The notes beneath the pieces are model-generated. The model was not told where the DNA came from, did not search any database, and saw only the letters and a program-made list of their open reading frames with translations. From a virus, in IMG/VR virus record IMGVR_UViG_3300000301_000012, positions 1 through 64,000 of that record: a DNA stretch of 64,000 bases, one strand, 5' to 3'. Positions 2,022-55,096 of this stretch are shown here, piece by piece; the first letter of the stretch is position 1; each line of letters starts with the position of its first letter. Both the position numbers and the translations under genes were made by a program.

Positions 2022-2840
2022 TTACTTTTTATAATTTTGCCCAATCTCTAAACAATCATATATAAAATTATCCAAAATTTCTCTAGCATATTCACTTCTA
2101 ACCTTCGACTTTTTTAATTCTTTTTCGGTTCCATATTTCTTTAAAAATAACTGATAAAAAGATTCTAATTGCTCCATAAAATAATCTCTAAAAGTTTTGG
2201 CTTTATCCAATTCAACAGGCAAAGTTTTCAATTCTCTAAGAAAATCAATATAATTATTAGTAACTTTTAAAGAATATTCAAAATCATTTGAGCTATAATA
2301 ACGTTTTAAAAAATCATAAAGTCGAATAATGTGAACTAATTGTTTTGGGTCATATCCATATTTCTCAATAGTTTCTTTCTTTCCTTCCGTCGGTTTGCTA
2401 AAAAGTTTAACTTTACTTAGCGCCATTCCCCTAGAAACATTTGCAAGAGTTAAAGGGCTTCTATTAGCAATTTTATCTCTCTTTTTTAAAAGATTAAAAA
2501 CGGGTTCTGTAAATTTAGGATTATACATATAATAAGGAGTATAAAGAATCTCCAAGAAATTAATATTTCCTTTATAAAAAGAATTACATATTAATCTAAT
2601 ATCTTGAATTAGATTAAGTCCGCCACTCTCATTATCTTTCTCTTTTGAAATCTTTTTCTTATCGAGATACAACTCGCGCTTTGTAGGGAGAATAATAGTC
2701 TTTACATCTACATCACTTTGTTCAGTTTCAATTCCATAGTTTTGGGAGCCATAAAGACCCATATAAACAAAAGGATGGCTATCTTTATAAATATCTTTAT
2801 AAAATAAGCCCATCTCATTTAAAATATTTGTAACCTCCAT
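2022..2840 (-). CDS. Pol-beta-fold nucleotidyltransferase, RlaP-like
   Basis: The translation has GSQNYGIETEQSDVDVK, the GS...D.D motif of the predicted-nucleotidyltransferase (RNA-repair-associated RlaP) family. Stop is TAA. This is the first gene of the AT-rich part. Confidence 0.65.
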   Translation of the reverse strand: MEVTNILNEMGLFYKDIYKDSHPFVYMGLYGSQNYGIETEQSDVDVKTIILPTKRELYLDKKKISKEKDNESGGLNLIQDIRLICNSFYKGNINFLEILYTPYYMYNPKFTEPVFNLLKKRDKIANRSPLTLANVSRGMALSKVKLFSKPTEGKKETIEKYGYDPKQLVHIIRLYDFLKRYYSSNDFEYSLKVTNNYIDFLRELKTLPVELDKAKTFRDYFMEQLESFYQLFLKKYGTEKELKKSKVRSEYAREILDNFIYDCLEIGQNYKK

Positions 2841-3222: not shown

Positions 3223-3335
3223 TAATGTCATCCCATCAGACATTTATTAAGGCGCAGTAACGTTACGCCACCCTATTTAAATTTTAGAGATTAGTAAAAA
3301 TAGCTTCGCCACGTAAAGGCTCTCTAATGAAGCCG

Positions 3336-3421
3336 CGCCAGAGAGAGGATTCGAACCTCCAAGCCATTTCTGACCGGCACTTTTCAAGAGTGCTGCTCTC
3401 ACCATACTGAGCGACTCTGGC
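3336..3421 (-). tRNA. tRNA-Ser(UGA)
   Basis: Acceptor GCCAGAG/CTCTGGC. Anticodon stem GCACT/AGTGC with loop CUUGAAA. Long variable arm, T-loop TTCGAAT, no encoded CCA. Confidence 0.85.
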
Positions 3422-3429
3422 ATATAAAA

Positions 3430-3504
3430 TGGTACCCACACCCAGAATCGAACTGAGATAGCGGCCTTAGAAGGACCGAGTTCTATCCGTTGAACTATAT
3501 GGGC
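3430..3504 (-). tRNA. tRNA-Arg(UCU)
   Basis: Acceptor GCCCATA/TGTGGGT. Anticodon stem CGGTC/GGCCG with loop CUUCUAA. T-arm CTCAG-TTCGATT-CTGGG, encoded CCA. Confidence 0.85.
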
Positions 3505-3511
3505 ATATAAC

Positions 3512-3598
3512 TAGACATAGTGAAGGAATCGAACCCTCTCAAGTAAAATTTTACAGATTTTCTTTTTAACCAAAAAATTTTTGCTGTTACTATGTCTA
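3512..3598 (-). ncRNA. tRNA-like RNA (GUA anticodon-like loop, canonical T-arm, aberrant D region); member of the ACAGCAAUU-box family
   Basis: A 9-bp terminal stem TAGACATAG/CTATGTCTA is followed by the box TAACAGCAA and the hairpin AAAAT-CUGUAAA-ATTTT. T-arm is GAGGG-TTCGATT-CCTTC. No normal D-arm is present. Confidence 0.45.
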
Positions 3599-3599
3599 T

Positions 3600-3695
3600 T
3601 GGCGCAACCGAGTAGACTCGAACTACCACATCAGATTTCTCCGATTACTCTCAACTTAGCAGGTTGATTCCTTACCCAATTAGGATTACGGCTGC
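3600..3695 (-). tRNA. tRNA-Ser(GCU)
   Basis: Acceptor GCAGCCG/CGGTTGC. Anticodon stem TCAAC/GTTGA with loop CUGCUAA. Long variable arm, T-loop TTCGAGT, encoded CCA. Confidence 0.85.
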
Positions 3696-3702
3696 ATAAA
3701 CT

Positions 3703-3766
3703 AGGCGCACTAACATCATCTACAAATTTATGGCGCAGATTGTTAATAGAATTGCAGTAAGCGCCT
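3703..3766 (-). ncRNA. acceptor-stem-like hairpin spacer with conserved box (family member)
   Basis: Terminal stem AGGCGC(T)/(A)GCGCCT, with the box TTACTGCAATT directly after the 5' arm on the minus strand. Confidence 0.35.
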
Positions 3767-3793
3767 TTTAGATTTATTGGACTTAATTTCAAC

Positions 3794-3867
3794 TGGCAGC
3801 GGTAGATGGTTACGCTCCACCTCCAAAGGTGTCAAAGACCTTTGTACTACTATTATACGATACCGCC
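3794..3867 (-). tRNA. tRNA-Gln(UUG)
   Basis: Acceptor GGCGGTA/TACCGCT (G1-U72) with discriminator G. Anticodon stem AAGGT/ACCTT with loop CUUUGAC. Unusual T-loop AGCGTAA, encoded CCA. Confidence 0.75.
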
Positions 3868-3870
3868 ATA

Positions 3871-3947
3871 TGGACCAGCAGACGAGATTTGAACTCGCAA
3901 CATCCTACTTGGAAGGCAGGTGCTCTAGCCAACTGAACTACTGCTGG
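3871..3947 (-). tRNA. tRNA-Gly(UCC)
   Basis: Acceptor CCAGCAG/CTGCTGG. Anticodon stem CCTGC/GTAGG with loop CUUCCAA. T-arm GCGAG-TTCAAAT-CTCGT, encoded CCA. Confidence 0.8.
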
Positions 3948-3951
3948 ATAT

Positions 3952-4091
3952 TGGTACTAGCGGGTGGAATCGAACCACCGGCAACAGGTTTTGGTGAGTT
4001 AAAAAGGTCTTGCACCTTCATCTTTTTAAAGGTTTTACTTTTAAACTATTAACCCATAAGACCTGCCCCATCACCACTTGGGTACGCTAGT
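3952..4091 (-). tRNA. interrupted tRNA; becomes a perfect 76-nt tRNA-Ile(UAU)-type cloverleaf if the 64-nt insert is removed
   Basis: Acceptor ACTAGCG/CGCTAGT, D-arm CCCA-AGTGGTGA-TGGG, anticodon stem CAGGT/ACCTG, T-arm GGTGG-TTCGATT-CCACC, then A-CCA. The loop halves CUUAU and AA are separated by 3992-4055. Confidence 0.6.
3992..4055 (-). ncRNA. tRNA-shaped insert lacking an anticodon arm, nested in an anticodon loop
   Basis: Reads GGGTTAA-TA-GTTT-AAAAGTA-AAAC-(12 nt)-GAAGG-TGCAAGA-CCTTT-TTAACTC-A-CCA. It has a 7-bp acceptor stem, D-arm, T-arm, discriminator and CCA. Confidence 0.5.
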
Positions 4092-4099
4092 ATATAGAC

Positions 4100-4159
4100 A
4101 AGACACCTTTGTTTCACAAATTGGCCATTTGTTGCAAGAAAAATTGCTGTTAGTGTCTT
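4100..4159 (-). ncRNA. acceptor-stem-like hairpin spacer with conserved box (family member)
   Basis: Terminal stem AAGACAC/GTGTCTT, then box TAACAGCAATT. Inner hairpins are GCAA-TTTTTC-TTGC and ACAAA-TGGCCAA-TTTGT. Confidence 0.4.
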
Positions 4160-4161
4160 AA

Positions 4162-4236
4162 TGGTTGTGACAGAAAGAATCGAACTTTCATGACGGCGTT
4201 ATCAGCACCGCATACTAACCATTGTATTATGTCACA
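4162..4236 (-). tRNA. tRNA-Ile(GAU)
   Basis: Acceptor TGTGACA/TGTCACA. Anticodon stem CGGTG/CGCCG with loop CUGAUAA. T-arm GAAAG-TTCGATT-CTTTC, A-CCA. Confidence 0.85.
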
Positions 4237-4239
4237 ATA

Positions 4240-4313
4240 TGGAGGCCAACCTCAGAATCAAACTGAGAACGAGAGGTTACAAAGCTCTTGTTTTATCATT
4301 AAACTAGTCGGCC
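4240..4313 (-). tRNA. tRNA-Thr(UGU)
   Basis: Acceptor GGCCGAC/GTTGGCC, D-arm GTTT-AATGATA-AAAC, loop UUUGUAA (one C-C mismatch closes the anticodon stem). T-arm CTCAG-TTTGATT-CTGAG, encoded CCA. Confidence 0.75.
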
Positions 4314-4318
4314 ATAAC

Positions 4319-4398
4319 TAGACGCTATTAACTATTAAATTAAATATATAGGGTTATATTTAGACCAAGATATTTAAATAAATTGCCGTAAGCGTCTA
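4319..4398 (-). ncRNA. acceptor-stem-like hairpin spacer with conserved box (family member)
   Basis: Terminal stem TAGACGCT/AGCGTCTA, with the box TTACGGCAATT after the 5' arm on the minus strand. Confidence 0.35.
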
Positions 4399-4409
4399 AT
4401 AAAAATTTC

Positions 4410-4486
4410 AAAGCACAATTAAGTAATATTTATCTTCTTGTCACAAAGTATCTTAAACTTAAAGTTCAAATTGCTGAATGTGCTTT
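4410..4486 (-). ncRNA. acceptor-stem-like hairpin spacer with conserved box (family member)
   Basis: Terminal stem AAAGCACA/TGTGCTTT, followed by the box TTCAGCAATT. Confidence 0.35.
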
Positions 4487-4488
4487 AT

Positions 4489-4564
4489 TGGTGCGCCAGG
4501 CGGTACTCGAAACCGCGGTCCCTTGATTAAAAGTCAAGTGCTTTACCAACTAAGCTACTGGCAC
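4489..4564 (-). tRNA. tRNA-Lys(UUU)
   Basis: Acceptor GTGCCAG/CTGGCGC. Anticodon stem CTTGA/TCAAG with loop CUUUUAA. T-arm GCGGT-TTCGAGT-ACCGC, A-CCA. Confidence 0.85.
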
Positions 4565-4616
4565 AAAATGCGTGTTTTACTTCCCGCCGGAAGATAAATA
4601 TATTTCCCAATCCTAT

Positions 4617-5054
4617 TTAGTTCTCTACGTTAAGCTTCATATTCTCATAAATATCTTTAAACTTCATATCCTCATAAATATCTACAATATTATGAGAATC
4701 TTCCTCTCGTACCCTAGCTACTCGTTCACGTTCCTCCTGATCCATTTCCACTTCCATCAAATTGAAAAAATGTTCCATAAATCGGTGAAGAGCCTTAGTC
4801 CTATCCTTCTCATACTTCAAGGAAGCTCGACGAGCCGCCATAATACGACCGATTTCCTCGTTAAAAACATCACCAGGCGCGCACTTAGCAACACCAACAT
4901 ACTTCTTCTTTAGCTTCAATACTTCGTACAATACAACAGGATTAAAGAGGTAAGGATTTTTAGCTCTCTTCAAAACAAGCTTATATACATCCTTATCACA
5001 ATTGTCAATAGTTGCCTTAACGATACCTGCTTCCTTGTCTACAAAGTACTTCAT
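4617..5054 (-). CDS. hypothetical protein embedded in the tRNA array
   Basis: 145-aa ORF with AAAGGAGTTTAAATT before the ATG and a TAA stop. Confidence 0.6.
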   Translation of the reverse strand: MKYFVDKEAGIVKATIDNCDKDVYKLVLKRAKNPYLFNPVVLYEVLKLKKKYVGVAKCAPGDVFNEEIGRIMAARRASLKYEKDRTKALHRFMEHFFNLMEVEMDQEERERVARVREEDSHNIVDIYEDMKFKDIYENMKLNVEN

Positions 5055-5139
5055 AATTTAAACTCCTTTTCTTTTTTTAAGTTTGTATAACTATTATACT
5101 TATTTTTTGTAGAACTTTCAAATTTTTTCTATCAGATGC

Positions 5140-5222
5140 TGGTGCGTTTGACAGGACTCGAACCTGCAAGCCGAAGCAACAGAACCTAAATCTGTCGAGT
5201 TTACCAATTTCTCCACAAACGC
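5140..5222 (-). tRNA. tRNA-Leu(UAG)
   Basis: Acceptor GCGTTTG/CAAACGC. Anticodon stem ACAGA/TCTGT with loop UUUAGGU. Long variable arm TGCTTCGGCT, T-loop TTCGAGT, A-CCA. Confidence 0.85.
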
Positions 5223-5564
5223 ATATTAAGTGCCTAGCTACCTCGTAAAACTAGGCGGGCTAGTGCTTCTCACCCGTAGGCATTACCCTTACCTTATCGG
5301 TTTACATCCACACTATATCACCACTATTATTTAATGGGTAATTCGCAGCGAGGTTTTTAACGATAATCTTATATTTTCTGGACAACATAAAATTGCGCTA
5401 TTTATTCTTCCAAATTAGCCCTAAAAAGTTTCATCTTAATATGCTTGTTAGGAATCTGCGCCCGTTTTGTTATTCATAGCTTTACTTTTAGTTATAAGTT
5501 CCTAGGTTTTATAACTAAAAGTTACCAATATTCCGAATCCCACGGAATAATATAAGATTATCTT
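5223..5564 (-). ncRNA. unassigned structured non-coding block (about 340 nt)
   Basis: No ORF on either strand. A 13-bp long-range pairing joins GATAATCTTATAT (5549-5561) to ATATAAGATTATC (5362-5374). A 13-bp hairpin spans about 5483-5525. Further pairings are ATTACCC/GGGTAAT and GCCTAG/CTAGGC. Confidence 0.4.
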
Positions 5565-5641
5565 TGGTAGTCACTAACAGACTCGAACTGTTGACCTCCT
5601 CGGTGTAAACGAGGCGTTCTAACCAACTGAACTAAGCGACT
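5565..5641 (-). tRNA. tRNA-Val(UAC)
   Basis: Acceptor AGTCGCT/AGTGACT. Anticodon stem CCTCG/CGAGG with loop UUUACAC. T-arm AACAG-TTCGAGT-CTGTT, A-CCA. Confidence 0.85.
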
Positions 5642-5647
5642 ATATAA

Positions 5648-5676
5648 GTGACTAATTATTTTAATTTGCTAGTCAC
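5648..5676 (-). ncRNA. short hairpin spacer with conserved box remnant (family member)
   Basis: Stem GTGACTA/TAGTCAC with a 15-nt loop that begins GCAAATT on the minus strand. Confidence 0.3.
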
Positions 5677-5746
5677 CAACAAATAGATGTTTGGGACACA
5701 CACAGTGGAGGGCACGGTCAGATTCGAACTGACGACACGCTGGTTA

Positions 5747-6415
5747 TGGCGTCAACTATGAGATTTGAACTCATATCTTTTCCCATTCTATATCAGAGTA
5801 TTTTTGAATATCTTTTCTCTTTGACGGTAAATTATACTTTTTACACCATTTACGAACAGCATTATCTGAAACTTTAAACATTTTTCCAATTGTAGTAAAC
5901 GGAGTATTTCTTATTAAGGATTTTAATTCTTCTCTACTTATTATATTTTTTTCTCTTAAACATTTCTAACATAACCCTGTTTTATTATTTGCAATTTCTT
6001 TTTTACAAGAAGAACAATAATATTGATGTTTTTTTGGATTTTTTAATTCTTCTGCTATATTTTTGTCATAAATTCTTTTTTGCTCAAGATATTCTTTAGT
6101 ATAAAAACCATCATGAACTTCTCTATGACAATTTGCACATAATAAAATACATTTCTAAATTTCTTGTAAATCTTCTTCCAAATTATGACAAATTCCTTTA
6201 GAAGAAATTCCGTACTCTTTTTCTTCAGGTCTTATATGATGAAATTCTAATGCACTTTTGCTTCTATTATAGCCACAAATATTACATTTATCACCACAAA
6301 CCCTTATTAAATTTTCTTTTCTTCTTCGTCTAAAATCAGAAGTTGCCTAACTACTCATAAATTTCACCATCAAACAATAGAATACAAAGAAAAATATTTC
6401 TTATACTAAGCTGAC
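5747..6415 (-). mobile_element. tRNA-shaped shell carrying an HNH endonuclease gene, nested in an anticodon loop
   Basis: The 5' end reads GTCAGCT-TA-GTAT-AAGAA-ATAT and the 3' end ATGAG-TTCAAAT-CTCAT-AGTTGAC-G-CCA. The acceptor stem has 7 bp including one G-U. The ORF replaces the anticodon arm. None of the ACGG...CCGTGCYAA group I core seen in the other three introns is present. Confidence 0.5.
5771..6358 (-). CDS. HNH homing endonuclease (3 in-frame TAG)
   Basis: ATG at 6358 and TGA at 5773-5771. The translation has CGDKCNICGY...EFHHI...CANCHREVH. TAG falls in the context GLC-TAG-KC. Not in the ORF track because TAG breaks it. Confidence 0.8.
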
Positions 6416-6451
6416 ACAGCCAGCTGCTCTGACCAACTGAGCTACGCACCC

Positions 6452-6977
6452 ATATAATGCCCTGGTTGCCAATCCTTCTCTGGTACTCAGACCTCTGGAG
6501 CGGCCGGGCCAGCCGCAAGAGTTTCTTTAATAAGGGAAACTACATAAAGACCTCCCCATCTTTCGTTAGGGACACGCTGAGGTTTAAGACCTCCCCCGTC
6601 TGTCGTTAGGGGTCACGCCGAGATTTTCAGGCACGAGGTACTCAGTACACACCCCGCTATTACGAGCGCCCGATGATGGACGCACTTAGTTTTTTCTCCG
6701 CAGAGAGGATATACTTTAACCCGAACTAGTTCTAGGCCTTTTTACTTCTTTACGCACATAAAAGACCACATAAACAACGCGCCATTTTACGAATTATTTC
6801 CACAGTTTGGGAGCCATACAAAAATAGTAACGAGGGCTTCGTCAGAAAGTTCTTATGCGACAAGAACTTACAATGAACGCTTTGAGTTTTTTCCTCGGAG
6901 TAAACCATCAACTAAATTTCTCGTATACAGAAACTTAATCTATTTTACAATCCTAGAAAAACGTTCCAAAGATTTAA
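6452..6977 (-). ncRNA. large structured non-coding RNA candidate (about 525 nt; ROOL/GOLLD-like context, class unconfirmed)
   Basis: No ORF, and visibly GC-richer than its flanks. It has many hairpins (AAGTTCTT/AAGAACTT, GCGGC/GCCGC, GTTTC/GAAAC). The module CCC(C)TAACGANAGAYGGGG(G)AGGTCTT is duplicated. It sits flush between two tRNA-type ends. Confidence 0.55.
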
Positions 6978-7509
6978 TGGTGGGCCATCTTGGTATCGAA
7001 CCAAGCGAGTCACAATGACAGCGGCTTTTGGAGATAGAATTTAGATTTGAACTAAAAAGTTGCAAGTATTAAATCCTTGGTTATTGGAATTTGGGATAGT
7101 TCTTAAAACTATTCTTGAAAGATTTCCAGATTTACGAATCTCTTCAACGGGAATTACAAAAAGATTCTTCATATCATCAGCACAAAATAATAAATCTACT
7201 GGATGATTTAGTAAATTATCATAAACTTGTCCCTTTGTTCCGCCTTTGTTTACCAATGAAATCTCCTTATTTTTACTAGCTGTAAATTTACATTGTACTG
7301 TTTGAAAAATATCATCTTTTTCTACAACTAAATCATACCATTGTGTATCATTAATTGGTAAACTAACAGTATAACCATTGGAACCAAAATATGCGATAGC
7401 AAGACTTAATCCCGCTCTTCCTTTATCCCTATTATTTAATAATTGCATAACCCTCCTCCATTAGGATTCTACCACAGGCCGCCCCGTCTCCTTAACGGAA
7501 TACTGACCC
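6978..7509 (-). mobile_element. tRNA-shaped shell carrying a PD-(D/E)XK endonuclease gene (free-standing)
   Basis: The 5' end reads GGGTCAG-TA-TTCC-GTTAA-GGAG and the 3' end CTTGG-TTCGATA-CCAAG-ATGGCCC-A-CCA, with 6 of 7 acceptor pairs. The architecture matches 5747-6415. Confidence 0.4.
7041..7448 (-). CDS. PD-(D/E)XK homing-endonuclease-like protein (I-Ssp6803I-like family)
   Basis: 135 aa with GGAGGAGGG before the ATG. The translation KGRAGLSLAIAYFGSNGYTVSLPINDTQWYDLVVEKDDIFQTVQCKF matches the D...(D/E)xK pattern of the small PD-(D/E)XK intron endonucleases. Confidence 0.7.
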   Translation of the reverse strand: MQLLNNRDKGRAGLSLAIAYFGSNGYTVSLPINDTQWYDLVVEKDDIFQTVQCKFTASKNKEISLVNKGGTKGQVYDNLLNHPVDLLFCADDMKNLFVIPVEEIRKSGNLSRIVLRTIPNSNNQGFNTCNFLVQI

Positions 7510-7596
7510 ATATAATGGCGGTTGGAGCTTATTTTAATTCGACGTCCGCCAACTCGAATGAAGGTTGAGTTATTGTCATTATACCTACAATATGAC

Positions 7597-7672
7597 TGGT
7601 CACGCCATCGGGAATCGAACCCGAATTACGGGATTGAAAGCCCCGTTTCCTTACCGTTTAGAAGATGGCGCG
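7597..7672 (-). tRNA. tRNA-Glu(UUC)
   Basis: Acceptor CGCGCCA/TGGCGTG. Anticodon stem CGGGG/TCCCG with loop CUUUCAA. T-arm TCGGG-TTCGATT-CCCGA, A-CCA. Confidence 0.85.
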
Positions 7673-7906
7673 ATAGAAATAGGAGTGACCGCCCTCCTAT
7701 TGGGTCTGTTGTTCCACTCCTATCGGTAGTTTTTAAATGGTGTTACCGACACCGATTTGCGTCAGGAGGAGTATCCTCCCCAATGGAATTTGTTGATACA
7801 ATCATAGAACCATCTCCTTCCAATAAACGCTTTTTAAGACTTAGCGTGGTACGCATTATTAAGAGGCGTGCTAAGTTCATTTCTACAAGAGGAACTTCCC
7901 ACTTGG
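7673..7906 (-). ncRNA. unassigned structured spacer immediately 3' of the suppressor tRNA
   Basis: No credible ORF. Hairpins are AGGAG-TGACCGCC-CTCCT, GGAGGA-GTA-TCCTCC, CGGTA...TACCG and CTTAGC...GCTAAG enclosing GCGT-GGT-ACGC. Confidence 0.35.
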
Positions 7907-7982
7907 TGGCAGCGGTTCTCAGAATCGAACTGAGTCCATCGCTTTTAGAGAGCGAGGCGCTAAACCGTTACGCTAAACCGCA
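7907..7982 (-). tRNA. amber suppressor tRNA(CUA), Gln-like identity features
   Basis: Anticodon stem TCGCT/AGCGA with loop CUCUAAA; the anticodon is complementary to plus-strand tag at 7946-7948. D-arm GCGT-AACGGTTTA-GCGC and T-arm CTCAG-TTCGATT-CTGAG. Acceptor TGCGGTT/AACCGCT has a U1-U72 mismatch, G2-C71 and discriminator G. CCA is followed by a second CCA. Confidence 0.85.
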
Positions 7983-8014
7983 TCATTCAAGTTTTTGAAT
8001 GGAACTTTAACCAT

Positions 8015-8089
8015 TGGGTGCAGAGGAAGGATTCGAACCTTCGATCTCCGACTCATGAGGACGGTGAGATACCACTTCTCTACTCTGCA
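8015..8089 (-). tRNA. tRNA-Met(CAU) (elongator Met or Ile2; not resolvable by eye)
   Basis: Acceptor TGCAGAG/CTCTGCA, loop CUCAUGA, T-arm GAAGG-TTCGAAT-CCTTC, C-CCA. The anticodon stem has one U-U mismatch. Confidence 0.75.
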
Positions 8090-8097
8090 ATATAGAC

Positions 8098-8162
8098 AAG
8101 GCACATAAGTAACAATAATTTCTCACCCAAGAAAAGCTGTTATTAATTGCTGTTTGCGCCTT
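8098..8162 (-). ncRNA. acceptor-stem-like hairpin spacer with conserved box (family member)
   Basis: Terminal stem AAGGCGCA/TGTGCCTT (one G-U pair), followed by the box AACAGCAATT. Confidence 0.35.
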
Positions 8163-8214
8163 TCTTTATCTTACATAAATATTATATAAGATTTTTAAAA
8201 ACTTTTCAAATTTC

Positions 8215-8337
8215 AAGATACCGTTAGAATAATTATTGCCTTACCATTTAGGCGATTTCTAAAATGATTAGAAAGTAAGAATCGAACTTACAATAGATAA
8301 TTTCCAAAAAATAATTATTGGTTGCTGTAGGTATCTT
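8215..8337 (-). ncRNA. circularly permuted, capped tRNA-like RNA on a basal stem (YrlA/Y-RNA-like architecture)
   Basis: The minus strand reads: basal AAGATACC, box TACAGCAA, then ATTAT, CTATT, T-arm GTAAG-TTCGATT-CTTAC. The acceptor TTTCTAA-TCATT-TTAGAAA is closed by a loop. Then come TC, D-arm GCCT-AAATGGTA-AGGC, A, ATAAT and basal GGTATCTT. Confidence 0.55.
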
Positions 8338-8341
8338 TAAC

Positions 8342-8415
8342 TGGCAGAAAACGTCGGTGCTGCCCCGCTATTCCACCTCCCAAAGATGGCGTGTTACTGT
8401 TACACTACGTTCTCT
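8342..8415 (-). tRNA. tRNA-Pro(UGG)
   Basis: Acceptor (A)GAGAAC(G)/(C)GTTTTC(T). Anticodon stem CCATC/GGTGG with loop UUUGGGA. The T-arm is weak and non-canonical (loop GGCAGCA). It abuts tRNA-Ala. Confidence 0.7.
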
Positions 8416-8491
8416 TGGTGGAACTAAGGGGATTCGAACCCCTAACCCTCTGCGTGCAAAGCAGATGCGCTTCCAATTACGCTATAGCCCC
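8416..8491 (-). tRNA. tRNA-Ala(UGC)
   Basis: Acceptor GGGGCTA/TAGTTCC carries the G3-U70 alanine identity pair. Loop UUUGCAC, T-arm AGGGG-TTCGAAT-CCCCT, A-CCA. Confidence 0.9.
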
Positions 8492-8640: not shown

Positions 8641-9387
8641 CATACTACTCTATGTCACCATAGCCGCATTACTGCGTTGTAGTCTGGACTATGTCTTCAC
8701 CATATCTCTCAACTTAGGTGGTTGGTATATAGTCTCTACACATTTATTTGGTGCAGTTCTTTCCACGATAGGAATCTGTTAAAGCGTGACAATTTGGACA
8801 TAATAATTCATAATTTTCTATACTATTATTATGTCTATTGCCATCTTTATGATGTAACTCTAATGGAATTGGATTGCCAAGCCATTCGGTTAAACCGCAA
8901 TGTTCACACTTATGTTCTTTATACCCTTCTTCTAACAACTTTATTCTAACTTTGTTTGATTGAATATCTTTGCTATTTTCAAGATATTGAACTAATGTCA
9001 TTTTTTCTTTAACTTTAGAATAACCTTTTCCACTTTGATTTCCATCATACTTTAAGCCTAATCTCTCTAATACGCTATTAATAGTTTTAGGATTACATCC
9101 TAATTCTCTTGCCATATAAGCTTTAGATCTGTTCTCAGAAATCCATCGTTCAATTTCTGCCTTACGCTCTAAAATATCTGTTCTCATAAGTATCACTCCT
9201 TTTTTTTCTTTCTACTTATAAGTAGAAAAGGAACACACTTATTACAGAATTTTGATGCGTAATCCAAAATTTAGCACGGCGTTCTGTGTTTGCCTTCGCC
9301 GTTTAGCCAACTTCTACTTTCACAATTTCTTGTGAAGCACTCTCTATCCAAAAGATAGCACTTCTTTTTAGGAAGTGAAACACATTA
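8641..9387 (-). mobile_element. group I intron with HNH homing-endonuclease ORF
   Basis: The 5' splice site follows U and the 3' splice site follows G. The core element GGCTAAACGGCG...ACGCCGTGCTAAATT resembles the P4-P6/P7 region of phage group I introns such as T4 td. The insertion site is the classical tRNA-Leu(UAA) position. Confidence 0.7.
8744..9187 (-). CDS. HNH homing endonuclease (intron-encoded)
   Basis: The translation has CEHCGL...LELHHKDGNRHNNSIENYELLCPNCHA. AGGAGTG lies 6 nt before the ATG at 9187. Stop is TAA. Confidence 0.85.
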   Translation of the reverse strand: MRTDILERKAEIERWISENRSKAYMARELGCNPKTINSVLERLGLKYDGNQSGKGYSKVKEKMTLVQYLENSKDIQSNKVRIKLLEEGYKEHKCEHCGLTEWLGNPIPLELHHKDGNRHNNSIENYELLCPNCHALTDSYRGKNCTK

Positions 9388-10622: not shown

Positions 10623-10648
10623 AAAAAAGGAGCTTCCGAAGAAGCTCC
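10623..10648 (-). terminator. rho-independent terminator (minus strand)
   Basis: Stem GGAGCTTC-CGAA-GAAGCTCC is followed by TTTTTT on the minus strand, just after the TAA of the vWA gene. Confidence 0.7.
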
Positions 10649-10654
10649 CTTATA

Positions 10655-12130
10655 TTAAACTTTACCAATCCAAACGCAATCATACATAGGATTATTAAGA
10701 GTTTCAATCATAACATCCCAACCAGTCTTACCGTTCAACGCAGCAGTCAGTTCTTTAAAAGAAGAAGGAGAACCGCCACTTACATGGATAAGATCAGGAC
10801 TATTACCCAAGAAAGTATTGCTACGAGCGTAAACATTCCAAAGAACTAGCTTAGGAAGATTAAAACCGTATTTAGCAAATTTCTTCCTCTGAATTTCTAC
10901 GAAATCATCATTAATATTATCTCTTTGAGAAATCCAGTCAATTTCCATATCAGAAATAACGATAATAGCTTTAGGCATTTCATCGTTAGGAATCTTATAG
11001 TCAATACCAGTTCTCAATACTAAATTGAAAGCTTCATTTAAATCAGTATTATATCCAAAATCCGTCCCTTCGGCCTTTACTATTTTTTGATAAATGTCGT
11101 CACTCTCTTTAAGAGTAATAAAATGAGGATTATCAGTAAAAGTCATGTAAAGATTATGGAAATAACCTTTATTTCTTTCAGCAAAATAAACTGCCAAACT
11201 AGTAGACATTGCCATAGGACGTCCAGACATAGAACCAGATACATCAGCCATAACAATATAGTTATTTTCACCTTCGACATAATTAGGAAGTCCATTCCAC
11301 TGAGCCTGGAGTAAATCTCTAGCTTGCATATTACAGCTACTAATTCTATCTGATTTTTCCTTAAGGTCGTAAGGATAAAGGACAGAACTATTGACTTTAG
11401 ATTCGCCAGTCTTTAAACCTGCAACATATTCATTAAATCTATCTTCATCATGTCTACGGAAAGCATCGGAATAATTCTTCATAGCATAAGAAGGAACATT
11501 ATCATAAATAATTTCATCCCAATTATTCGCAGACATATCTCTCTCAACAATTCGAATAGCATGACGCAACCTAGACAGAGCTTTACGATAAGTTCTGCTA
11601 GTCATACCCAACTCACCAATGGCGCGCCGTGCAAGATGAATAGTCTCAGGAGAAGAAGCATTTTCAGAAGGCATCCACTTACCCAGAAGACTTACAGAAT
11701 TGCCCTTAGCGCAATTAACTAGATCTTCTTTAAAGGTTTCCTTAATCAAATCCCACATTACCTTCTCGCATTTTGTTCCAGTAAGAACAAAAAGAGAATC
11801 CCAACGATTAAAATGGGGAATCAACTTAATATTATTCTCTACATATTTAGGCGCAATATTTGCCAAAGTTTTTAGACAAATACGGAAAGTTCTGCGCTCA
11901 CCTAAACCGCCACGAATGTTACCGGCATAAAATAACATCTTAGTAGTCAATTCAGGATTTTCTCTAAAAGAATTTGTAAACATTTCACTAATGTCTTTCA
12001 CACTTCGACTTCTCAAAGCACCGATGACACCAAAAAGAGATAAAACATTACTATCCAAACAGGAATAAGCGTTCATTCCATTTTCAGTAAACTTATCGGT
12101 AGTATTCTTAGCGGCTTGTGCAAAATTCAT
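10655..12130 (-). CDS. DUF2828-type protein with C-terminal vWA domain (Ro60/TROVE-like architecture)
   Basis: 491 aa. The N-terminal region reads TENGMNAY...LFYAGNIRGGLGERRTFR. The C-terminal vWA domain has the MIDAS motif DVSGSMSG. The TROVE-plus-vWA order matches Ro60. Confidence 0.75.
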   Translation of the reverse strand: MNFAQAAKNTTDKFTENGMNAYSCLDSNVLSLFGVIGALRSRSVKDISEMFTNSFRENPELTTKMLFYAGNIRGGLGERRTFRICLKTLANIAPKYVENNIKLIPHFNRWDSLFVLTGTKCEKVMWDLIKETFKEDLVNCAKGNSVSLLGKWMPSENASSPETIHLARRAIGELGMTSRTYRKALSRLRHAIRIVERDMSANNWDEIIYDNVPSYAMKNYSDAFRRHDEDRFNEYVAGLKTGESKVNSSVLYPYDLKEKSDRISSCNMQARDLLQAQWNGLPNYVEGENNYIVMADVSGSMSGRPMAMSTSLAVYFAERNKGYFHNLYMTFTDNPHFITLKESDDIYQKIVKAEGTDFGYNTDLNEAFNLVLRTGIDYKIPNDEMPKAIIVISDMEIDWISQRDNINDDFVEIQRKKFAKYGFNLPKLVLWNVYARSNTFLGNSPDLIHVSGGSPSSFKELTAALNGKTGWDVMIETLNNPMYDCVWIGKV

Positions 12131-12166
12131 TTGACATTTCTCCTTTTACTCAATAAAGTAAAAGCT

Positions 12167-12277
12167 AGACGCAATAGCTCCAAAGAAGGGACTCGAACCC
12201 TTAAATACTGAATTTAACGTTCAGAGCTTTTTCCTTTTAAGCTACTTCGGAAATCTCTCGCTTCGCTGTTCGCGTCT
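12167..12277 (-). ncRNA. stem-enclosed tRNA-like RNA directly upstream of the Ro60-like gene
   Basis: Basal pairing AGACGC (12277-12272 complement) with GCGTCT (12172-12167 complement). The box-like GAACAGCG follows the 5' arm. It encloses the cloverleaf at 12178-12251. Confidence 0.45.
12178..12251 (-). tRNA. tRNA-like cloverleaf with UUA in the anticodon position and G33 (probably not a decoding tRNA)
   Basis: Acceptor TCCGAAG/CTTTGGA and D-arm GCTT-AAAAGGAAA-AAGC. Anticodon stem CTGAA/TTCAG with loop CGUUAAA. T-arm AAGGG-TTCGAGT-CCCTT, no CCA. Confidence 0.5.
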
Positions 12278-12389
12278 TAACTTTTCTGTAATTATTATCT
12301 CAAGATTTTCATTATTTTTCAAATTTTAAAAAGAAAAGAGAAAAGTTGAAACTTTTCTCCTTTTAATTATAATTATTTTTCATTTTATA

Positions 12390-12842
12390 TTAGCCAACTG
12401 TGGTACTTTCTTCAATTATTACATTGCTTTCATCAACTATTTCTTCTGTTTGTGGTAATTGAATTGCTTCAACCGTAGTTGTAGTAGGAGTAGCTACGGT
12501 AGTTGTTTCGGGAATTGTATATTCTACAGTCATATTTTCACTTTTAATCCGAATAACATCAGTTGCATTTTTAACAAGACCAATTAATTCAGATACAGCA
12601 GAACTTCCACCCATAAAAACTAGCGCTGTTAGTATCTATCCCATTATAGATACCTCTGCTATTAAACCTAGTCCAACTAAAATATCCAGTGAAAAACAAA
12701 AAGCACAAGCAAAAGAAAGAATTGCGGAAATTCCAACTGTTATATATTTACTATAAGGAACATTAACCCATAATTCTTTAAGTCTATCTATTATATACCA
12801 AATAATAACGCTCATCGCGCCAACTAAAAATAACATATCCAT
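12390..12842 (-). CDS. holin-like membrane protein (1 in-frame TAG)
   Basis: Track ORFs 12636-12842 and 12390-12614 share a frame and are joined only by TAG at 12638-12636; I checked that no TAA or TGA lies between them. The N-terminal half has two hydrophobic segments. Stop is TAA. Confidence 0.6.
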
Positions 12843-12976: not shown

Positions 12977-13381
12977 ATGGATTATACACAAATAGAAGAA
13001 AAACATAATTTATATGATAGAATTATAACTACAGCAATGATTAATATGTATAGTTTAAGTAAAGAAAAAGAAGAAATAATTCTAAAAAATGTTGATCCTA
13101 ATAATATTAGTCATTTATTTATGATTGAAGTAGCTAAAATTGTTAATTTATATTGGGGATTTAAAATTAAGATTCAAACTTCTTTTTTTAATTTTAGAAA
13201 ACTTAAAAAACAATGTAGATTAAGTAAAAAAAATACAAAAAGAATTTCTCTTAAAAAAGAGAATTATGCAGCTATTAAAATTGAAAAATTCTTAAAAGAT
13301 ATTCAAAAAGCTTACGAAACAAAACCTAGTATCTTTAGGGATATTTATGATGCTTATTATGCCTGTAATGAGGTGATATGA
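12977..13381 (+). CDS. hypothetical protein
   Basis: 134-aa ORF with AAGGAAGG before the ATG and a TGA stop that overlaps the next start. Confidence 0.6.
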   Translation: MDYTQIEEKHNLYDRIITTAMINMYSLSKEKEEIILKNVDPNNISHLFMIEVAKIVNLYWGFKIKIQTSFFNFRKLKKQCRLSKKNTKRISLKKENYAAIKIEKFLKDIQKAYETKPSIFRDIYDAYYACNEVI

Positions 13382-14397
13382 TGGTAACAATTATAATGCC
13401 AGTTCATAACAATAAAGAATTATTTAAATAGGCATTAGAATCTTTATGTCTTTAGACTAAAAAACTTTTTAGAGTTTATATAGTAGATGATAATAGTGAA
13501 GAAGATATTCAAAGTATTGTTTCTTAGTTTAAGAATAAACTGAATATTATTTATAGAAAATTAAATGAAAATGTAGGTCCTGGATTAGCGAGACAAATGG
13601 GTTTAGATGCAATTTATAAGCAAAAAGAATAGAATCCTGATTTAAACTTAGATTATGTAATGTTTATGGATTCAGATGATTTACTTTATCCGCGCGCGGT
13701 GGAAATTTTACATCGTGAAGCTATTGGTCATAATGTAGATATGTTATACTCATAGATTATGAGAGATGAAAAAGGTGGCACAGGTGGGGTTATTGATAAC
13801 GATAATAATACTACTTGGCTTCATGGAAAGATTTATCGAGTTGATTTTTTAAAAGATAATAATATTCGATTTTTAGATAGTATTAAATATAATGAAGATG
13901 CTTATTTTAATTTAGTTGCAGCCTTTTTAGCTAAAAGACGATTTCATGTTCAAGAAGTAACTTATCTTTGGAGAGATAATAAAAAATCAGTTACTAGAAC
14001 TAATTCTCTTTTGTTTAAAAAAGAACATAATGTTGAATATTTAATTTCTCAAGTTGAAGCAACTTTGAAGATTTTAGATAGTGTAAAAGACGCCGAAGGA
14101 TTAATTCCAACTTTATCTAATATTTATTGTAGCTATCAATATGAAAAATATTTATATCATCATAATACTAATTTTATTAATGAGAAAATAATTAAAATTT
14201 TTAATAATCCTAAAATTATTAAAATATTCGATAAAAAACCATTAATTAAAAAATTAGCATTTTCAATTCCTAGTTCAGTAGTAGTATGTGATAGCGTATA
14301 TTTCTTTAGTGAAAACTTTATTGAATGGATGAATAATTTTTAGGATGAAACAATGAATCAATTGGCTTAGAAATTAATTTGGAAAATAGAGGAATAA
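13378..14397 (+). CDS. family 2 glycosyltransferase (7 in-frame TAG)
   Basis: The translation has IIMPVHNN...ALESLCL-TAG-T, DDNSEEDI and FMDSDD motifs. I walked the frame: TAG at 13429, 13453, 13525, 13630, 13753, 14341 and 14368. The first TAA is at 14395, 2 nt before the next ATG. Confidence 0.85.
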
Positions 14398-16119: not shown

Positions 16120-17037
16120 TTAACCCCAAACACCAACTGTTTTAACCCAGGCGCTTCCATCCCAATAATTTAAAGTATGCTCAGAACTATTAATCCATAG
16201 AAGAGAAGTATCTGAAGGAGCTTCAGCCTATATTACGAAACTAGTTGTTTTAGGGGCATCAATCCATTGAGGGCCAGAAGAGCTATAACCAAGAATTTTT
16301 CCATCAGTTCCACCTTCAGGGAGGCCAGATGGTAAATTCTAAGGTTCAGGAATTCCAGAAGAATCAAAGCCTATTACCTAACCAGGTTTACCTGTTATAA
16401 AAGGCATAGCAAAATAACTCCAAGAACTCCACGAGATTCCTGATTCGGAAGATATAATACCATATCGGACATATCCACAACTAGGAGCTAAATCAACCGG
16501 AACCATAGAATAAATATTCTAAATTATCATTGCATATCCTTCAAAACCTGTAGAAGATGGGCCAACAAAATGGCGTACTTCTAAATAAAAAGCTGTAGCT
16601 ATCTCTTTATTAGGAATATTCGAAATTTCTGGATAAGTCGTACCGTTAGACATTCCAACATAAGTTCCAGGCTCAGTTACGTCATTTAAATCTGTAATTT
16701 CTAATTCATGCAATGATTTCATATTTGCATAGTCTAATTGTATGGCGGTATTACTTTTGTCATTCTATGCAATGGCATTTCCATCTTCGTCAAAGCCTAC
16801 TATTTGACCTTGAGTGCCAGTTAACTTATTTTGTTTATTTGTAATAAGATTCCTTAAAATCTCGTCTGTAAATGGAAGCTGAGTATAAGTTTTAGTTCCA
16901 TCGCCAACTTTAGCTCTTAGCTCTCCACTATCAGTGTCTATTAAAATAATTTCACCATTAAGTAAAACAGGATTATTAACTGTCCAATTGACGGCGGTAT
17001 CTCTCTTTAGCTTAATTCTTGCATTAAAATTGCTCAT
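16120..17037 (-). CDS. tail fibre paralogue with shared N-terminal domain (5 in-frame TAG)
   Basis: The frame was walked codon by codon: TAG at 16765, 16519, 16378, 16339 and 16228, and no TAA or TGA until 16122-16120. The N-terminus reads RIKLKRDTAVNWTVNNPVLLNGEI...GDGTKTYTQLPF. Confidence 0.8.
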
Positions 17038-40936: not shown

Positions 40937-41863
40937 TAGCTAATGTGGCATAAGCCTCCTCTCTATGGTGACATAGTTAAAATAAACGCTGTGAACGCCT
41001 TTAGCAAGCGGTGTCCGAAAGGGCTAACGGGGAAAATCTTATAAAAATAAAGACAATCCCGTGCCAAGTTACTTTATCATTGGAGAGCCAATAATAAAGT
41101 AAAAGGTGTAACGACTATCCGAAAGGAGTAGGGTGGATTTGCTACCACTCGAAGCGCAGCGGCTCTCATAATATTTAAAGTAGGTGATATTATGGGATAT
41201 ATTTATAAAATTCAAAATAAAATAAATGATAAAATTTATATTGGACAAACAGTAGCTAGTCCACAAAGAAGATGGACTTAGCATAAAAACAATATAAAAA
41301 GAGATTACTTATAGCATATAGCTTTATACAAAGCTATGAATAAATATGGTATCGAAAATTTTACTTTTGAAGTTTTAGAAGAAGTTTCAAATAATTTGCT
41401 CGATGAACGAGAAAAATATTGGATAAAAAATTTTAATAGCTATGGTAAAAATGGTTATAATATGACTCTAGGTGGAAGATGTACTAAACTTTATAATTGG
41501 GATGAACTTGAAATAATTGAGTTATACTATAAAGAGAAATCTGCTAGAAAAGTTGCAAAAATAATTGGATGCGACCATAGTACTGTTGATAAAATTTTAA
41601 ATGCAAATAATATTCCTAGATTTTCTATTGCATAGCAAATTAGTAAAAGAATAGTCCTAGAAAAAGATGATAAATATTTATTTGAAACGACTTCTGATGC
41701 TGCTAAATGGCTAATAGAAACTGGAAAAACAAGAAGTAAAAATTTTCATAGCATAAGATAGCAAATTTCAGAAAAAGCAAGAGTAAATGGAATTTATTTT
41801 GGATTTAAAGTATATTATGAGAGTAAGATATAGTCTACCCCACTAGAAATAGTGGATAAGGTG
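40937..41863 (+). mobile_element. group I intron with GIY-YIG ORF in dnaE
   Basis: The 5' splice site follows U (aggt|t) and the 3' splice site follows G (ggtg|tt). Splicing gives ...LFPWR-F-MNPERVSPLDIDID..., the conserved RF(L/M)NPER motif. The core GCTAACGGGGAA...GACAATCCCGTGCCAAGTT is close to the T4 td intron core. TGTAACGACTATCC is shared with the topoisomerase intron. Confidence 0.75.
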
Positions 41864-41869
41864 TTATGA
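41192..41869 (+). CDS. GIY-YIG homing endonuclease (5 in-frame TAG)
   Basis: The translation reads MGYIYKIQNKINDKIYIGQT...RRWT-TAG-HKNN. Track ORF 41336-41635 is in the same frame. The first non-TAG stop is TGA at 41867. Confidence 0.75.
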
Positions 41870-44517: not shown

Positions 44518-45677
44518 TGGGTACTGTAGGTTTATATGATTGTGACTTATCTAATTTTGGATAGATTTTCTTCAATTTAGAGTTGATGAAAATAGCTTCC
44601 TATTTTAAGAATAGCAACTAGATTGTAACTATGTGTCCAAAGATATAGCCAGAATTATATTCTGATTTTTATTATCGAAAAGATTATGATACTGGAGTTT
44701 TTAATAAAAAGATTCTTCCTTATTTAAGTAATGAACATTTTCATTACGGTGGTTTAGCTTTCTCAAATAATAAATACATTCCATTACCAGAGGATATTGA
44801 AGGGTCTATTCCTGACCCTTCTATTTATTCTCGATTTTAGGAATCCTTTGAAAGAAGTTCTTTAGGAAAAATTGGATATAGAAGTTTTATGCGCGGGCCG
44901 CACTTAAGATTATCTACAGATGAAAAGACTATCTCAAATTATCCTTTTGATAAAGTATTATGGTCTACTAAAGGAGTAATAGTGTTTATCCACGATTATG
45001 ATATTGGTAAAATAGAGGATAGTTTGGATACAGTAAAATATTTATTACAATAGAAAAATAAAAATTTAATAAAAGGCGCGCTCGCGACAAAATTTCCCGT
45101 TGTTCTAAAAAAAGAATAGGATTTTATTGAATGGGAAAAAATAATTTGGTCGCCATTATCCGCGCCACTAACTTTTAAAGGATTAATGAATGATGAAGCT
45201 TTTTCGGAAGTAACTTTATTAACAAGATTAGGTCAACGAAAAATAGAGAATATAGATTATTATATAGATTATGGATGTTCCGATGAAGATGATTTTATAA
45301 TAAATCGCTTACCTAAAATTTTTAAATAGGTCACATTTTTACGAATGAATTAGGCAAGAATTTTTCTTAAATATGAGGATAATTTTTTTCAAGATGAAAG
45401 ATGTAGAAAATTAATTGGATTACTTAATGTATTTATAGAAGGAGAACGAACTTTAAATTATGAATAGCACCATGATTTTATAAATACGAATACCTTTGCA
45501 GGTTATTGTAAAAAATTATAGATAGTGCAAGGTAAACCAAAAGTCGTTCCTTTTCTAAGGGAAGATGCAAGAGAAGTATTTCAATTTATTCGAGAAAAAA
45601 ACTACGAACTTTTTAAAGATTTTTATGAATGTAGTACTGTTACTTTAAAAAATGGAGAGTTTAAAAATGACAAGTGA
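44517..45677 (+). CDS. hypothetical early-module protein (10 in-frame TAG)
   Basis: ATG overlaps the dnaE TAA. I walked all 386 codons. TAG lies at 44562, 44619, 44646, 44838, 45051, 45117, 45327, 45351, 45465 and 45519. No TAA or TGA occurs before 45675. Confidence 0.7.
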
Positions 45678-54639: not shown

Positions 54640-55033
54640 CAGAAACCTCCAAAAATTTTAGAAGAGTTTCTAAATCTCCAAATTTTAAATTAACTTCATT
54701 CAATTTTTCAAAATCTTTGTTTTTAATTTTAATTTTTTCTATTTCAACTTCTGTATTATTTAATTCCATAATTGCTTTTTGACATTCTTCAATTTTATCT
54801 TTTATAATAATAAAACTACTCTAATCATTTGACATTTTTATTGTACCATCTTCATTTTTTTCACAATAAAGATTTAAAATTTTATTAAATTCTTCTTGCC
54901 AAAAATTATAATTAGTTTTATTTTTTTCATTTAATAAAGTTAAAGAATAGGCTAATTGAATAGGTATTACCTTTTCCTTTAAATTATTATATACTTCCTA
55001 AAAAACTAAACAATCCTATAAATTAATTTTCAT
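54632..55033 (-). CDS. hypothetical protein (3 in-frame TAG)
   Basis: GGAGGA lies before the ATG at 55033. TAG at 55016, 54998 and 54821; TAA at 54634-54632 (checked). Confidence 0.6.
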
Positions 55034-55096
55034 ATAAAAATCCTCCTTTTACTCCTTTATAATAATTATACCATAGCAATTGTTTTTATGTCAAAT

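Follow-up and report, generated by a model that had tools for sequence, protein, structure and literature searches.

Ro60 proteins and their Y RNAs have been described in bacteria and in a phage. The 2014 survey of the tRNA-like YrlA RNAs covered only genomes annotated with TROVE proteins (PMC4201824). Thermus phage phiLo encodes phiRo60, a protein that binds two Y-RNA-like RNAs (Yrl1 and Yrl2) whose genes lie upstream of its own, and that also forms complexes with the PNPase of the host (PMC12135203). In Bas63, a Felixounavirus, the gene for the Ro60-like gp130 lies directly upstream of the phage tRNA block and counters Ppl defence, and the authors speculated that some of the Bas63 'tRNA genes' are Y RNAs (PMC11482910). 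Here, we analyse a 64,000-nt stretch of viral DNA – positions 1-64,000 of IMG/VR record IMGVR_UViG_3300000301_000012, hereafter the window – in which a minus-strand region (10655-12277) carries the gene for a 491-amino acid (aa) protein with DUF2828 and vWA domains, preceded by a tRNA-like cloverleaf enclosed in a stem with a CAGC-type box. The stem and box recur beside DUF2828-vWA genes of many phages as a family of structured elements, which we call CAGC-box RNAs. We think it rather probable that the locus is a phage counterpart of the Ro60/Y-RNA ribonucleoprotein (RNP), made up of a ring protein and CAGC-box RNAs.

The 491-aa protein matches two Pfam families, DUF2828 (E 3e-34; 118.9 bits, cut-off 29) and the vWA-type domain DUF7788 (E 4e-27; 95.3 bits, cut-off 27.1), with a further weak match to VWA_2, and PHROG 850 ('RNA-binding protein') aligns with it end to end (1e-116); NCBIfam assigns it to no family. 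The residues of the MIDAS (metal ion-dependent adhesion site) – D296-x-S298-x-S300, T362 and D394 – are invariant both among 48 close homologues and in a 13-member alignment covering phages of Gram-positive, Gram-negative and actinobacterial hosts. An earlier note on this DNA, made from the letters of the window, had described the protein as DUF2828 plus vWA with an intact MIDAS motif, and these matches bear it out. The family is present in at least 706 phage records (tblastn), many of them annotated as 'Ro-like RNA binding protein' or 'DUF2828'.

The same note likened the protein to Ro60 (TROVE plus vWA), a comparison that stands for fold and architecture and does not extend to TROVE by sequence. 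An AlphaFold2 model (pLDDT 82, pTM 0.71) predicts a HEAT-repeat ring of the Ro60 type shut by the vWA domain, and its ten best Foldseek matches in the PDB are all Ro60 structures, matched along its whole length (about 510 aligned columns, E 4e-6 to 3e-3), among them phiRo60 of Thermus phage phiLo, D. radiodurans Rsr, and the Xenopus and human proteins; the matches ranked below these are isolated vWA domains (E >0.08). The description 'Ro60-like' is supported by the model in this sense. Pfam gives no match to TROVE (PF05731) at E <= 1, and phmmer and two profile searches yield nothing significant to Ro60 in the PDB, with phiRo60 reached at E = 1.9 through the MIDAS loop only. When a DUF2828 profile is compared by hhalign with a TROVE profile of 25 sequences built from mycobacteriophage McGee gp233, the vWA halves alone align (probability 70%, E 3.9e-5), with a C-terminal VSG motif common to both; gp233 itself, as a control, matches TROVE at 9e-50 and vWA_Ro60 at 4e-54. 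By these sequence comparisons, membership of the 491-aa protein in the TROVE family is not supported.

The gene forms a self-contained one-gene unit on the minus strand (12363-10626), running from a promoter-like site to a terminator-like hairpin, with the following features:

12363-12334, minus strand: terminator-like hairpin ending the upstream gene
12294-12322, minus strand: promoter-like site TTGAAA-17-(TG)GATAAT with an extended -10 TG, a consensus match only, conserved in relatives
12167-12278, minus strand: Y-RNA-like element in the mRNA leader, with a 7-bp closing helix (AAGACGC / GCGTCTa) around box and cloverleaf
12263-12268, minus strand: CAGCGA box, a putative protein-docking motif (family consensus nnA-CAGCRA)
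12178-12251, minus strand: unpermuted 74-nt tRNA-like cloverleaf with loop CGUUAAA (G33, UUA), G73 and no CCA (ARAGORN, Rfam, alignment)
12140-12164, minus strand: hairpin CUUUUAC/GUAAAAG overlapping the Shine-Dalgarno AAAGGAG (12146-12140), clade-specific
10655-12130, minus strand: gene for the DUF2828 plus vWA (DUF7788) protein, 491 aa, with intact MIDAS and a predicted Ro60-like ring fold (open reading frame, Pfam, PHROG, AlphaFold2 model)
10626-10651, minus strand: strong intrinsic-terminator-like hairpin ending the one-gene unit

Judging from the promoter-like sequence, the transcript would start about 10 nt ahead of the RNA element. In the outer stem AGACGC (12277-12272) pairs with GCGTCT (12172-12167), and the box sequence 3′ of the first of these strands reads GAACAGCGA. 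For the 3′ flank of the element (CUUUU) there are two possible pairing partners in the window's clade, the Shine-Dalgarno region and AAAAG 5′ of the stem (12281-12285), and some covariation of the two flanks is seen (AAAAG/CUUUU, CAAAG/CUUUG, GAAAG/CUUUC, AAAGG/CCUUU). This alternative pairing hints at translational feedback, and the hairpin at 12140-12164 is a possible translational switch specific to the clade. A switch of this kind between the two flanks and the Shine-Dalgarno was also considered as a family-wide feature and rejected, being found at 24% against 13% for permuted partners.

ARAGORN calls the cloverleaf (12177-12251, minus strand) as tRNA-Stop(tta); against the tRNA model of Rfam, 12178-12251 scores 54.1 bits. 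It retains the T loop UUCGAGU and the GG of the D loop, and in the loop CGUUAAA the nucleotide at position 33 is G (12218), followed by UUA (12217-12215). CCA is encoded by 13 of the 14 canonical tRNAs of the nearby array and not by the cloverleaf, which is class I in shape; the arrays of relatives hold ordinary tRNA-Tyr genes of 85-87 nt. Relatives carrying the cloverleaf came only from contig look-ups – no close nucleotide relative of the locus was found by nucleotide search of a phage collection, and the 37 matches of an exact-pattern IMG/VR scan with the cloverleaf pattern TTTCCNANNTAGCTTAAA were all due to chance, with no homologue among them – giving eight cloverleaf-bearing loci in all (the window, L002, L003, L004 and L254-L257). 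The outer stem and all four tRNA stems are kept in these eight, with 95.5% of cells paired and 13 of 28 pairs changed on both sides (covariation score 0.50, against 0.235 for shuffles). Position 33 is a purine (G or A) in every one and never U, the loops read CGUUAAA, UGUUAAA, CAGUAAA, CAAUAAA or CGUAAAA, and the 'anticodon' triplet drifts between UUA, GUA, AUA and UAA. Because it has a purine at position 33, an unconserved triplet and no encoded CCA, we regard the cloverleaf as a structural tRNA mimic rather than a decoder: of the attributes of a decoding tRNA it has the tRNA-scoring fold, and lacks both U33 with a conserved anticodon and the encoded CCA.

Contigs encoding close homologues of the protein were fetched and the regions upstream of the gene aligned. 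The cloverleaf is found only where the protein is at least ~57% identical; the stem and box are present in all seven closest loci, even those without a cloverleaf, and the stem occurs in the compensatory versions AGACGC/GCGTCT, AGGCGC/GTGCCT, GAGCCC/GGGCTC and GGGCA/TGCCC. The cloverleaf is thus a clade-specific insert, and the conserved feature is the stem plus the CAGC box.

A scan of IMG/VR with the single protein returned only one locus, and an alignment-based scan a further 80, with proteins 41-55% identical; in these 80 loci the same motif lies just 5′ of the gene, often as a tandem of two or three. From 136 unique instances the consensus reads 5′-AAAGRCNC-nnA-CAGCAA-(12-140 nt)-GNGYCTTG-3′. 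In the 400 nt upstream of the gene the motif has a density of 2.85 per kb, ten-fold above the 0.28 per kb of the opposite strand, and when stems are not preselected, 48% of unique CAGCAA sites on the gene strand fall within a stem of 7 bp or more, compared with 14% of those on the other strand. Five of six rearranged-box controls lie in stems at 8-17%, and the sixth, AACAGC, which overlaps the motif itself, at 35%. All seven stem pairs covary in the 136 elements (score 1.0; shuffles score 0.23 and slid partners 0.1-0.2), a count with some circularity, since possession of a stem was a condition for selecting the elements.

After dereplication, a strict element lies within 500 nt of the gene in 40 of 57 gene clusters, with 69 elements in sense and 3 in antisense orientation, and 15 of the 26 tRNA-free clusters have one. 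A set of 80 loci from bacterial assemblies – mostly metagenome-assembled genomes (MAGs) of gut Firmicutes, together with the Selenomonas sputigena chromosome, and independent of the phage set – contains 180 sense and 10 antisense elements. The linkage also holds in reverse: among matches to an exact pattern of one motif allele in IMG/VR, a DUF2828 homologue is encoded within the short fetched locus, always on the same strand, in 12 of 32 that have the complementary stem strand nearby, versus 2 of 51 without a stem. Three tandem CAGC-box elements, ~270 nt apart, are also present on contig L102 (157-714), which is 15.6 kb long and bears the label of a giant-virus MAG (GVMAG); the stretch of it that was fetched holds no DUF2828 homologue. 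Rfam 15 gives only tRNA-clan matches to CAGC-box elements, and the literature searched describes neither a CAGC-box RNA nor a partner RNA for DUF2828 proteins; the family is probably undescribed.

The window holds six CAGC-box elements, all on the minus strand: the gene-leader copy (12167-12278) and five between tRNAs of the array:

3335-8491, minus strand: array of 14 canonical tRNA genes with CAGC-box elements interleaved (ARAGORN, Rfam)
8215-8337, minus strand: long CAGC-box element whose core is permuted as in YrlA (T arm, then a closed stem of 7 bp, then D arm)
8098-8162, minus strand: short CAGC-box element (AAGGCGCA..CAGCAA..TGTGCCTT), 8 nt upstream of tRNA-Met
4409-4487, minus strand: short CAGC-box element beginning 1 nt past the CCA of tRNA-Lys
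4099-4160, minus strand: short CAGC-box element beginning 1 nt past the CCA of tRNA-Ile
3512-3598, minus strand: CAGC-box element with a T-arm hairpin (AGGGUUCGAUUCCUU), between tRNA-Ser(GCU) and tRNA-Arg, with a weak tRNA-Sec-like match in Rfam

Between 3001 and 12500 there are six stem-plus-box elements on the minus strand and none on the plus strand, and in shuffles that preserve composition the mean is 0.36 and the highest count 2. A further candidate at 12590-12638 (minus strand) was dropped; its box is CAGCGC and it is located at a junction between open reading frames (ORFs). The array copies either begin 1 nt past the CCA of the tRNA before them or stop 7-9 nt short of the one that follows, and since they abut tRNA ends in this way, tRNA end-processing would release them.

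Insert lengths in the family cluster at 20-40 nt and at 80-110 nt, and a T-arm hairpin (NNNNN-TTCRANN-NNNNN) is present in 26 of the 136 elements. The long elements of Felix O1, LeBron, Tsamsa, iF6 and the window (8337-8215) fold alike, in the order of closing helix, T arm, an adjoining closed stem, usually of 7 bp (range 6-8), a short linker that is usually UA, and a D arm with a GG loop.

Among element-bearing loci of unrelated annotated phages the DUF2828-vWA gene is the only neighbour in common, the others differing from phage to phage, and in roughly half of all loci of the family the gene lies beside or inside a same-strand tRNA array. Copies are arranged as follows:

Felix O1: four copies among the tRNAs downstream of the gene
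Listeria phage AG20: three copies upstream of the gene
Mycobacteriophage LeBron: three copies downstream, with no tRNAs nearby
Bacillus phage Tsamsa: six copies within and after a 19-tRNA array
Campylobacter phage Los1: two copies upstream
Staphylococcus phage CoN_Ph9: three copies downstream, overlapped in part by an annotated 29-aa 'hypothetical protein'
Enterococcus phage iF6: four copies upstream

Small coding sequences are annotated over CAGC-box elements or tRNA spacers in Staphylococcus phage S-CoN_Ph9 (L095, 4513-4602) and in Felix O1 (L089, 4619-5644), and such 'hypothetical protein' or 'unknown' entries over the elements are probably not genes. In AG20 (L090, 5090-7035) an HD-type phosphohydrolase and an RtcB-type 'tRNA splicing ligase' are encoded a few genes downstream of the DUF2828-vWA gene, an arrangement that echoes the bacterial rsr-rtcB linkage.

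The RNA side of the earlier note fares well against these data. Its 74-nt cloverleaf at 12178-12251, with CGUUAAA, G33, UUA and no CCA, is recovered by ARAGORN, Rfam and direct read-out of the sequence; the outer AGACGC/GCGTCT stem with its box is present, and is backed by the six-to-none strand count and by compensatory changes in the eight loci; the segment 8215-8337, which the note had tied to the locus, belongs to the same CAGC-box family; and the linkage of the gene with tRNA-like RNAs in related genomes, on which it had staked its proposal, holds across many phage lineages.

How such an RNP might be built can be sketched from these features. A CAGC-box RNA has two modules, a conserved 7-bp helix with nnA-CAGCRA on its 5′ strand and a variable inner module. 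Ro60 binds Y RNA on the outer surface of its ring and RNA ends in the cavity; by analogy with the Ro60-binding stem of Y RNAs, helix and box may be the docking site for the protein, and RNAs embedded in arrays would probably be freed by RNase P and by 3′-end processing of the adjacent tRNAs. A tRNA-shaped inner module could present a tRNA surface to a partner – either a tRNA-recognising host nuclease or defence factor, for which it would be a decoy or tether, or enzymes of tRNA repair or quality control – and in this way the tRNAs carried in by the phage would be protected or policed.

Several points weigh against a phage counterpart of the Ro60/Y-RNA RNP. The DUF2828 N-terminal region has no sequence-level similarity to TROVE in Pfam, PDB searches or hhalign, and homology with Ro60 therefore rests on the predicted fold, for which the TM-scores of the model against Ro60 structures are modest (0.37-0.57). 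The 491-aa protein is presumed to bind CAGC-box RNAs by analogy, and the decoy or repair role of the tRNA-shaped module is conjecture. A strict element is missing from 17 of the 57 clusters, of which about ten have relaxed versions and about six seem truly to be without, and the stem covariation count is in part circular. The cloverleaf keeps a full anticodon arm, which the YrlA paradigm does not account for. Lastly, Bas63 gp130 alone rescues T7 on a Ppl strain (PMC11482910), so phage-encoded RNAs may be dispensable for at least one function.

Other explanations of the elements have to be set beside this one. The stem-loops could be purely cis-acting, as an autoregulatory mRNA leader or as processing or stability signals of polycistronic tRNA transcripts, rather than trans-acting partners. 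The element of the window does lie in the mRNA leader between promoter and Shine-Dalgarno, the 3′ flank of its clade (CUUUU/CCUUU) pairs with the Shine-Dalgarno or with the 5′ flank (AAAAG) with some covariation, and the array copies abut tRNA ends. However, elements are found on either side of the gene, 2-6 of them in tandem, and also within tRNA arrays at a distance of kilobases; the flank switch does not extend to the whole family; the long copies maintain an elaborate permuted-tRNA fold that would be needless for a processing signal; and the element tracks the gene and not the tRNAs, as its presence in tRNA-free clusters illustrates. An exclusively cis-acting role is unlikely on this evidence, and cis and trans roles are not mutually exclusive. 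It is more doubtful still that the elements are real structured RNAs bound by another phage or host factor and linked to the gene through a shared pathway. Protein-RNA binding is argued here from analogy, and the box differs from the GNCGAA motif of the RNAs that partner TROVE-type Ro60, both of which leave room for such a factor; but the DUF2828-vWA gene is the sole neighbour shared across Felix O1 and the Listeria, Staphylococcus, Enterococcus, Campylobacter, Bacillus and mycobacterial phages, and Ro60 genes as a rule adjoin those for their Y RNAs, both in bacteria and in phage phiLo (PMC4201824, PMC12135203). As to the cloverleaf itself, its non-canonical loop and lack of CCA might be those of a decaying tRNA pseudogene inserted by chance into the hairpin, an idea that is barely credible given that the acceptor, anticodon and T stems show compensatory changes between loci whose proteins share only 57-60% identity, and that the T loop and the D-loop GG are intact.

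That the cloverleaf is instead a working suppressor tRNA – ochre, or derived from tRNA-Tyr – taking part in stop-codon recoding, with the outer stem only a precursor structure, has to be judged against the codon usage of the phage, which appears to reassign TAG. Reading TAG as sense lifts stop-to-stop ORF coverage from 0.72 to 0.94 and joins late-type ORFs, including one at 58659-63998 (1779 aa) with 41 in-frame TAGs and one of 1182 aa with 20; a Glycos_transf_2 (GT2) domain (E 1e-22) spans TAG positions, and early-type genes, among them the Ro60-like gene, are without TAG. The regions of the window bearing on the reassignment are 13372-14397 (plus), 16120-17037 (minus), 41051-41869 (plus), 44505-45677 (plus) and 53707-63998 (minus). 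Suppression by the cloverleaf would fit with this recoding and the canonical tRNA(CUA) that the phage carries, with the acceptance of the cloverleaf as a tRNA by ARAGORN and Rfam, and with GUA and UUA variants one mutation apart, as in classical Tyr-derived suppressors. The tRNA(CUA) lies at 7907-7982 (minus strand), with U33 and an encoded CCA, labelled 'Pyl' by ARAGORN and found at the same array position in L002-L004, and it is this tRNA, not the cloverleaf mimic, that serves TAG recoding. The cloverleaf has G or A at position 33 in all eight homologues, a triplet that varies while the stems covary, no encoded CCA, and a class I shape unlike the tRNA-Tyr genes of relatives. TAA is the commonest stop, and a model with TAA as sense fragments ORFs instead of joining them; an ochre suppressor would harm the phage because TAA ends 20 of the 37 long ORFs, including the gene for the 491-aa protein. 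The ochre reading is rejected on position 33, triplet drift, the missing CCA and TAA usage, and a suppressor role in any form is very improbable.

Returning to the Ro60/Y-RNA counterpart, a broader and decidedly more tentative proposal can be built on it. DUF2828-vWA proteins and CAGC-box RNAs may be a large unrecognised branch of the Ro60/Y-RNA system specific to tRNA-rich phages, with RNAs cut from arrays by host tRNA-processing enzymes and ranging from hairpins to permuted mimics to a non-decoding cloverleaf. The cloverleaf, with its Tyr/ochre-like loop and purine 33, would act on tRNA-targeting defences of the host as a decoy or tether that they cannot cleave, and the protein would be a general anti-defence factor. 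The earlier suggestion that the module counters host anticodon nucleases is speculation.

Other features of the tRNA region deserve record. Rfam matches an abiF RNA at 7839-7875 (minus strand; 36.8 bits, just under the gathering score of 37, E 4e-4), and gives weak tRNA-like matches uncalled by ARAGORN at 3995-4055 (40.9 bits), 8346-8414 (29.6 bits) and 6379-6451 (23.1 bits), all on the minus strand; that at 8346-8414 sits 8 nt upstream of the long CAGC-box element. Endonuclease genes of PD-(D/E)XK and HNH/HTH type, in that order, are inserted at 7041-7448 and 8744-9196 (minus strand), and relatives have GIY-YIG genes at comparable places. Beyond the array lies a gene noted for context only:

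2022-2840, minus strand: RlaP-family nucleotidyltransferase (27 bits, cut-off 23)

RlaP enzymes add nucleotides to damaged RNA 3′ ends in tRNA repair (PMC12776372). The earlier note had drawn this gene into the module; the match is real but weak, and the link to the RNAs and protein is proximity only.

The DUF2828 or 'Ro-like' gene is carried by model and therapeutic phages, including Felix O1-like, Listeria P100/A511-like, Staphylococcus and Enterococcus phages and mycobacteriophages, and a searchable RNA signature beside it supplies concrete candidate ligands. The anti-defence phenotype of Bas63 gp130 is thereby tied to a testable RNP, and within phage tRNA arrays, spacers taken to be 'empty' and some small hypothetical ORFs can be reassigned as structured RNAs. 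The tRNA mimicry of Y RNAs would be extended from permuted cores to a full cloverleaf, which bears on the long-standing question of the purpose that a tRNA-like module serves in Y RNAs.

Among known systems, suppressor tRNAs of stop-codon-recoded phages share with the window the cloverleaf shape, UUA in the anticodon position, and a genome that reassigns TAG with a tRNA(CUA); the cloverleaf of the window is unlike them in its purine 33, drifting triplet, lack of CCA, and an enclosing stem linked to a protein gene. Another parallel is bacterial Ro60 (Rsr) with YrlA and YrlB, as in Salmonella, M. smegmatis and D. radiodurans (PMC4201824, 10.1101/312249). Common to both are a HEAT-repeat ring with a MIDAS-bearing vWA domain (here predicted), partner RNAs (here candidates) encoded beside the gene, often one long and tRNA-like and others shorter, like YrlA and YrlB, RNA ends that form a closing stem with a short conserved motif on the 5′ strand, and long RNAs that, like YrlA, are circularly permuted tRNA mimics without CCA. 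The N-terminal domain, in contrast, is DUF2828 and not detectably TROVE, the motif is nnA-CAGCRA where TROVE-type partners have GNCGAAN0-1G (PMC4201824), and copies are embedded in phage tRNA arrays. YrlA, a substrate of TruB and DusA with a tRNA-like L shape, has no anticodon arm, whereas the gene-proximal RNA here is an unpermuted cloverleaf with a full one. That element shares with YrlA the absence of an encoded CCA, and lacks GNCGAAN0-1G – relatives do not keep the CGAA of the window copy – and the permuted core, which is found in its siblings at 8215-8337 and in Felix O1, LeBron, Tsamsa and iF6. The system resembles Ro60/Y RNA yet is, by sequence, without two of its defining marks, the TROVE signature and the GNCGAA motif. 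About 120 nt upstream of the McGee TROVE gene gp233 there is a GNCGAA-type sequence, GGCCGAAG (L338, 380-400), inside gp232, annotated as a 57-aa 'hypothetical protein', and no CAGCRA box is present there.

phiRo60 (PDB 9KOP, 9L5Y) is a phage protein of the Ro60 fold and the best structural match to our model (TM 0.54-0.57), with small RNAs encoded just upstream of its gene and a proposed anti-host role. It is unlike the 491-aa protein in having a TROVE domain, being only at E = 1.9 to the DUF2828 profile; its RNAs were chosen by a CGAA motif and, by the description given, are not tRNA-shaped (PMC12135203); and PNPase binding has been shown for phiRo60, whereas the 491-aa protein is known here from sequence and model. 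In the Felixounaviruses, Felix O1 ORF86 – a homologue of the window protein – has the same arrangement upstream of tRNAs as Bas63 gp130, and genus and arrangement suggest that gp130 is orthologous to the window protein. No RNA motif was defined for Bas63, whereas the candidates that we put forward in Felix O1 are the inter-tRNA CAGC-box elements rather than the annotated tRNAs.

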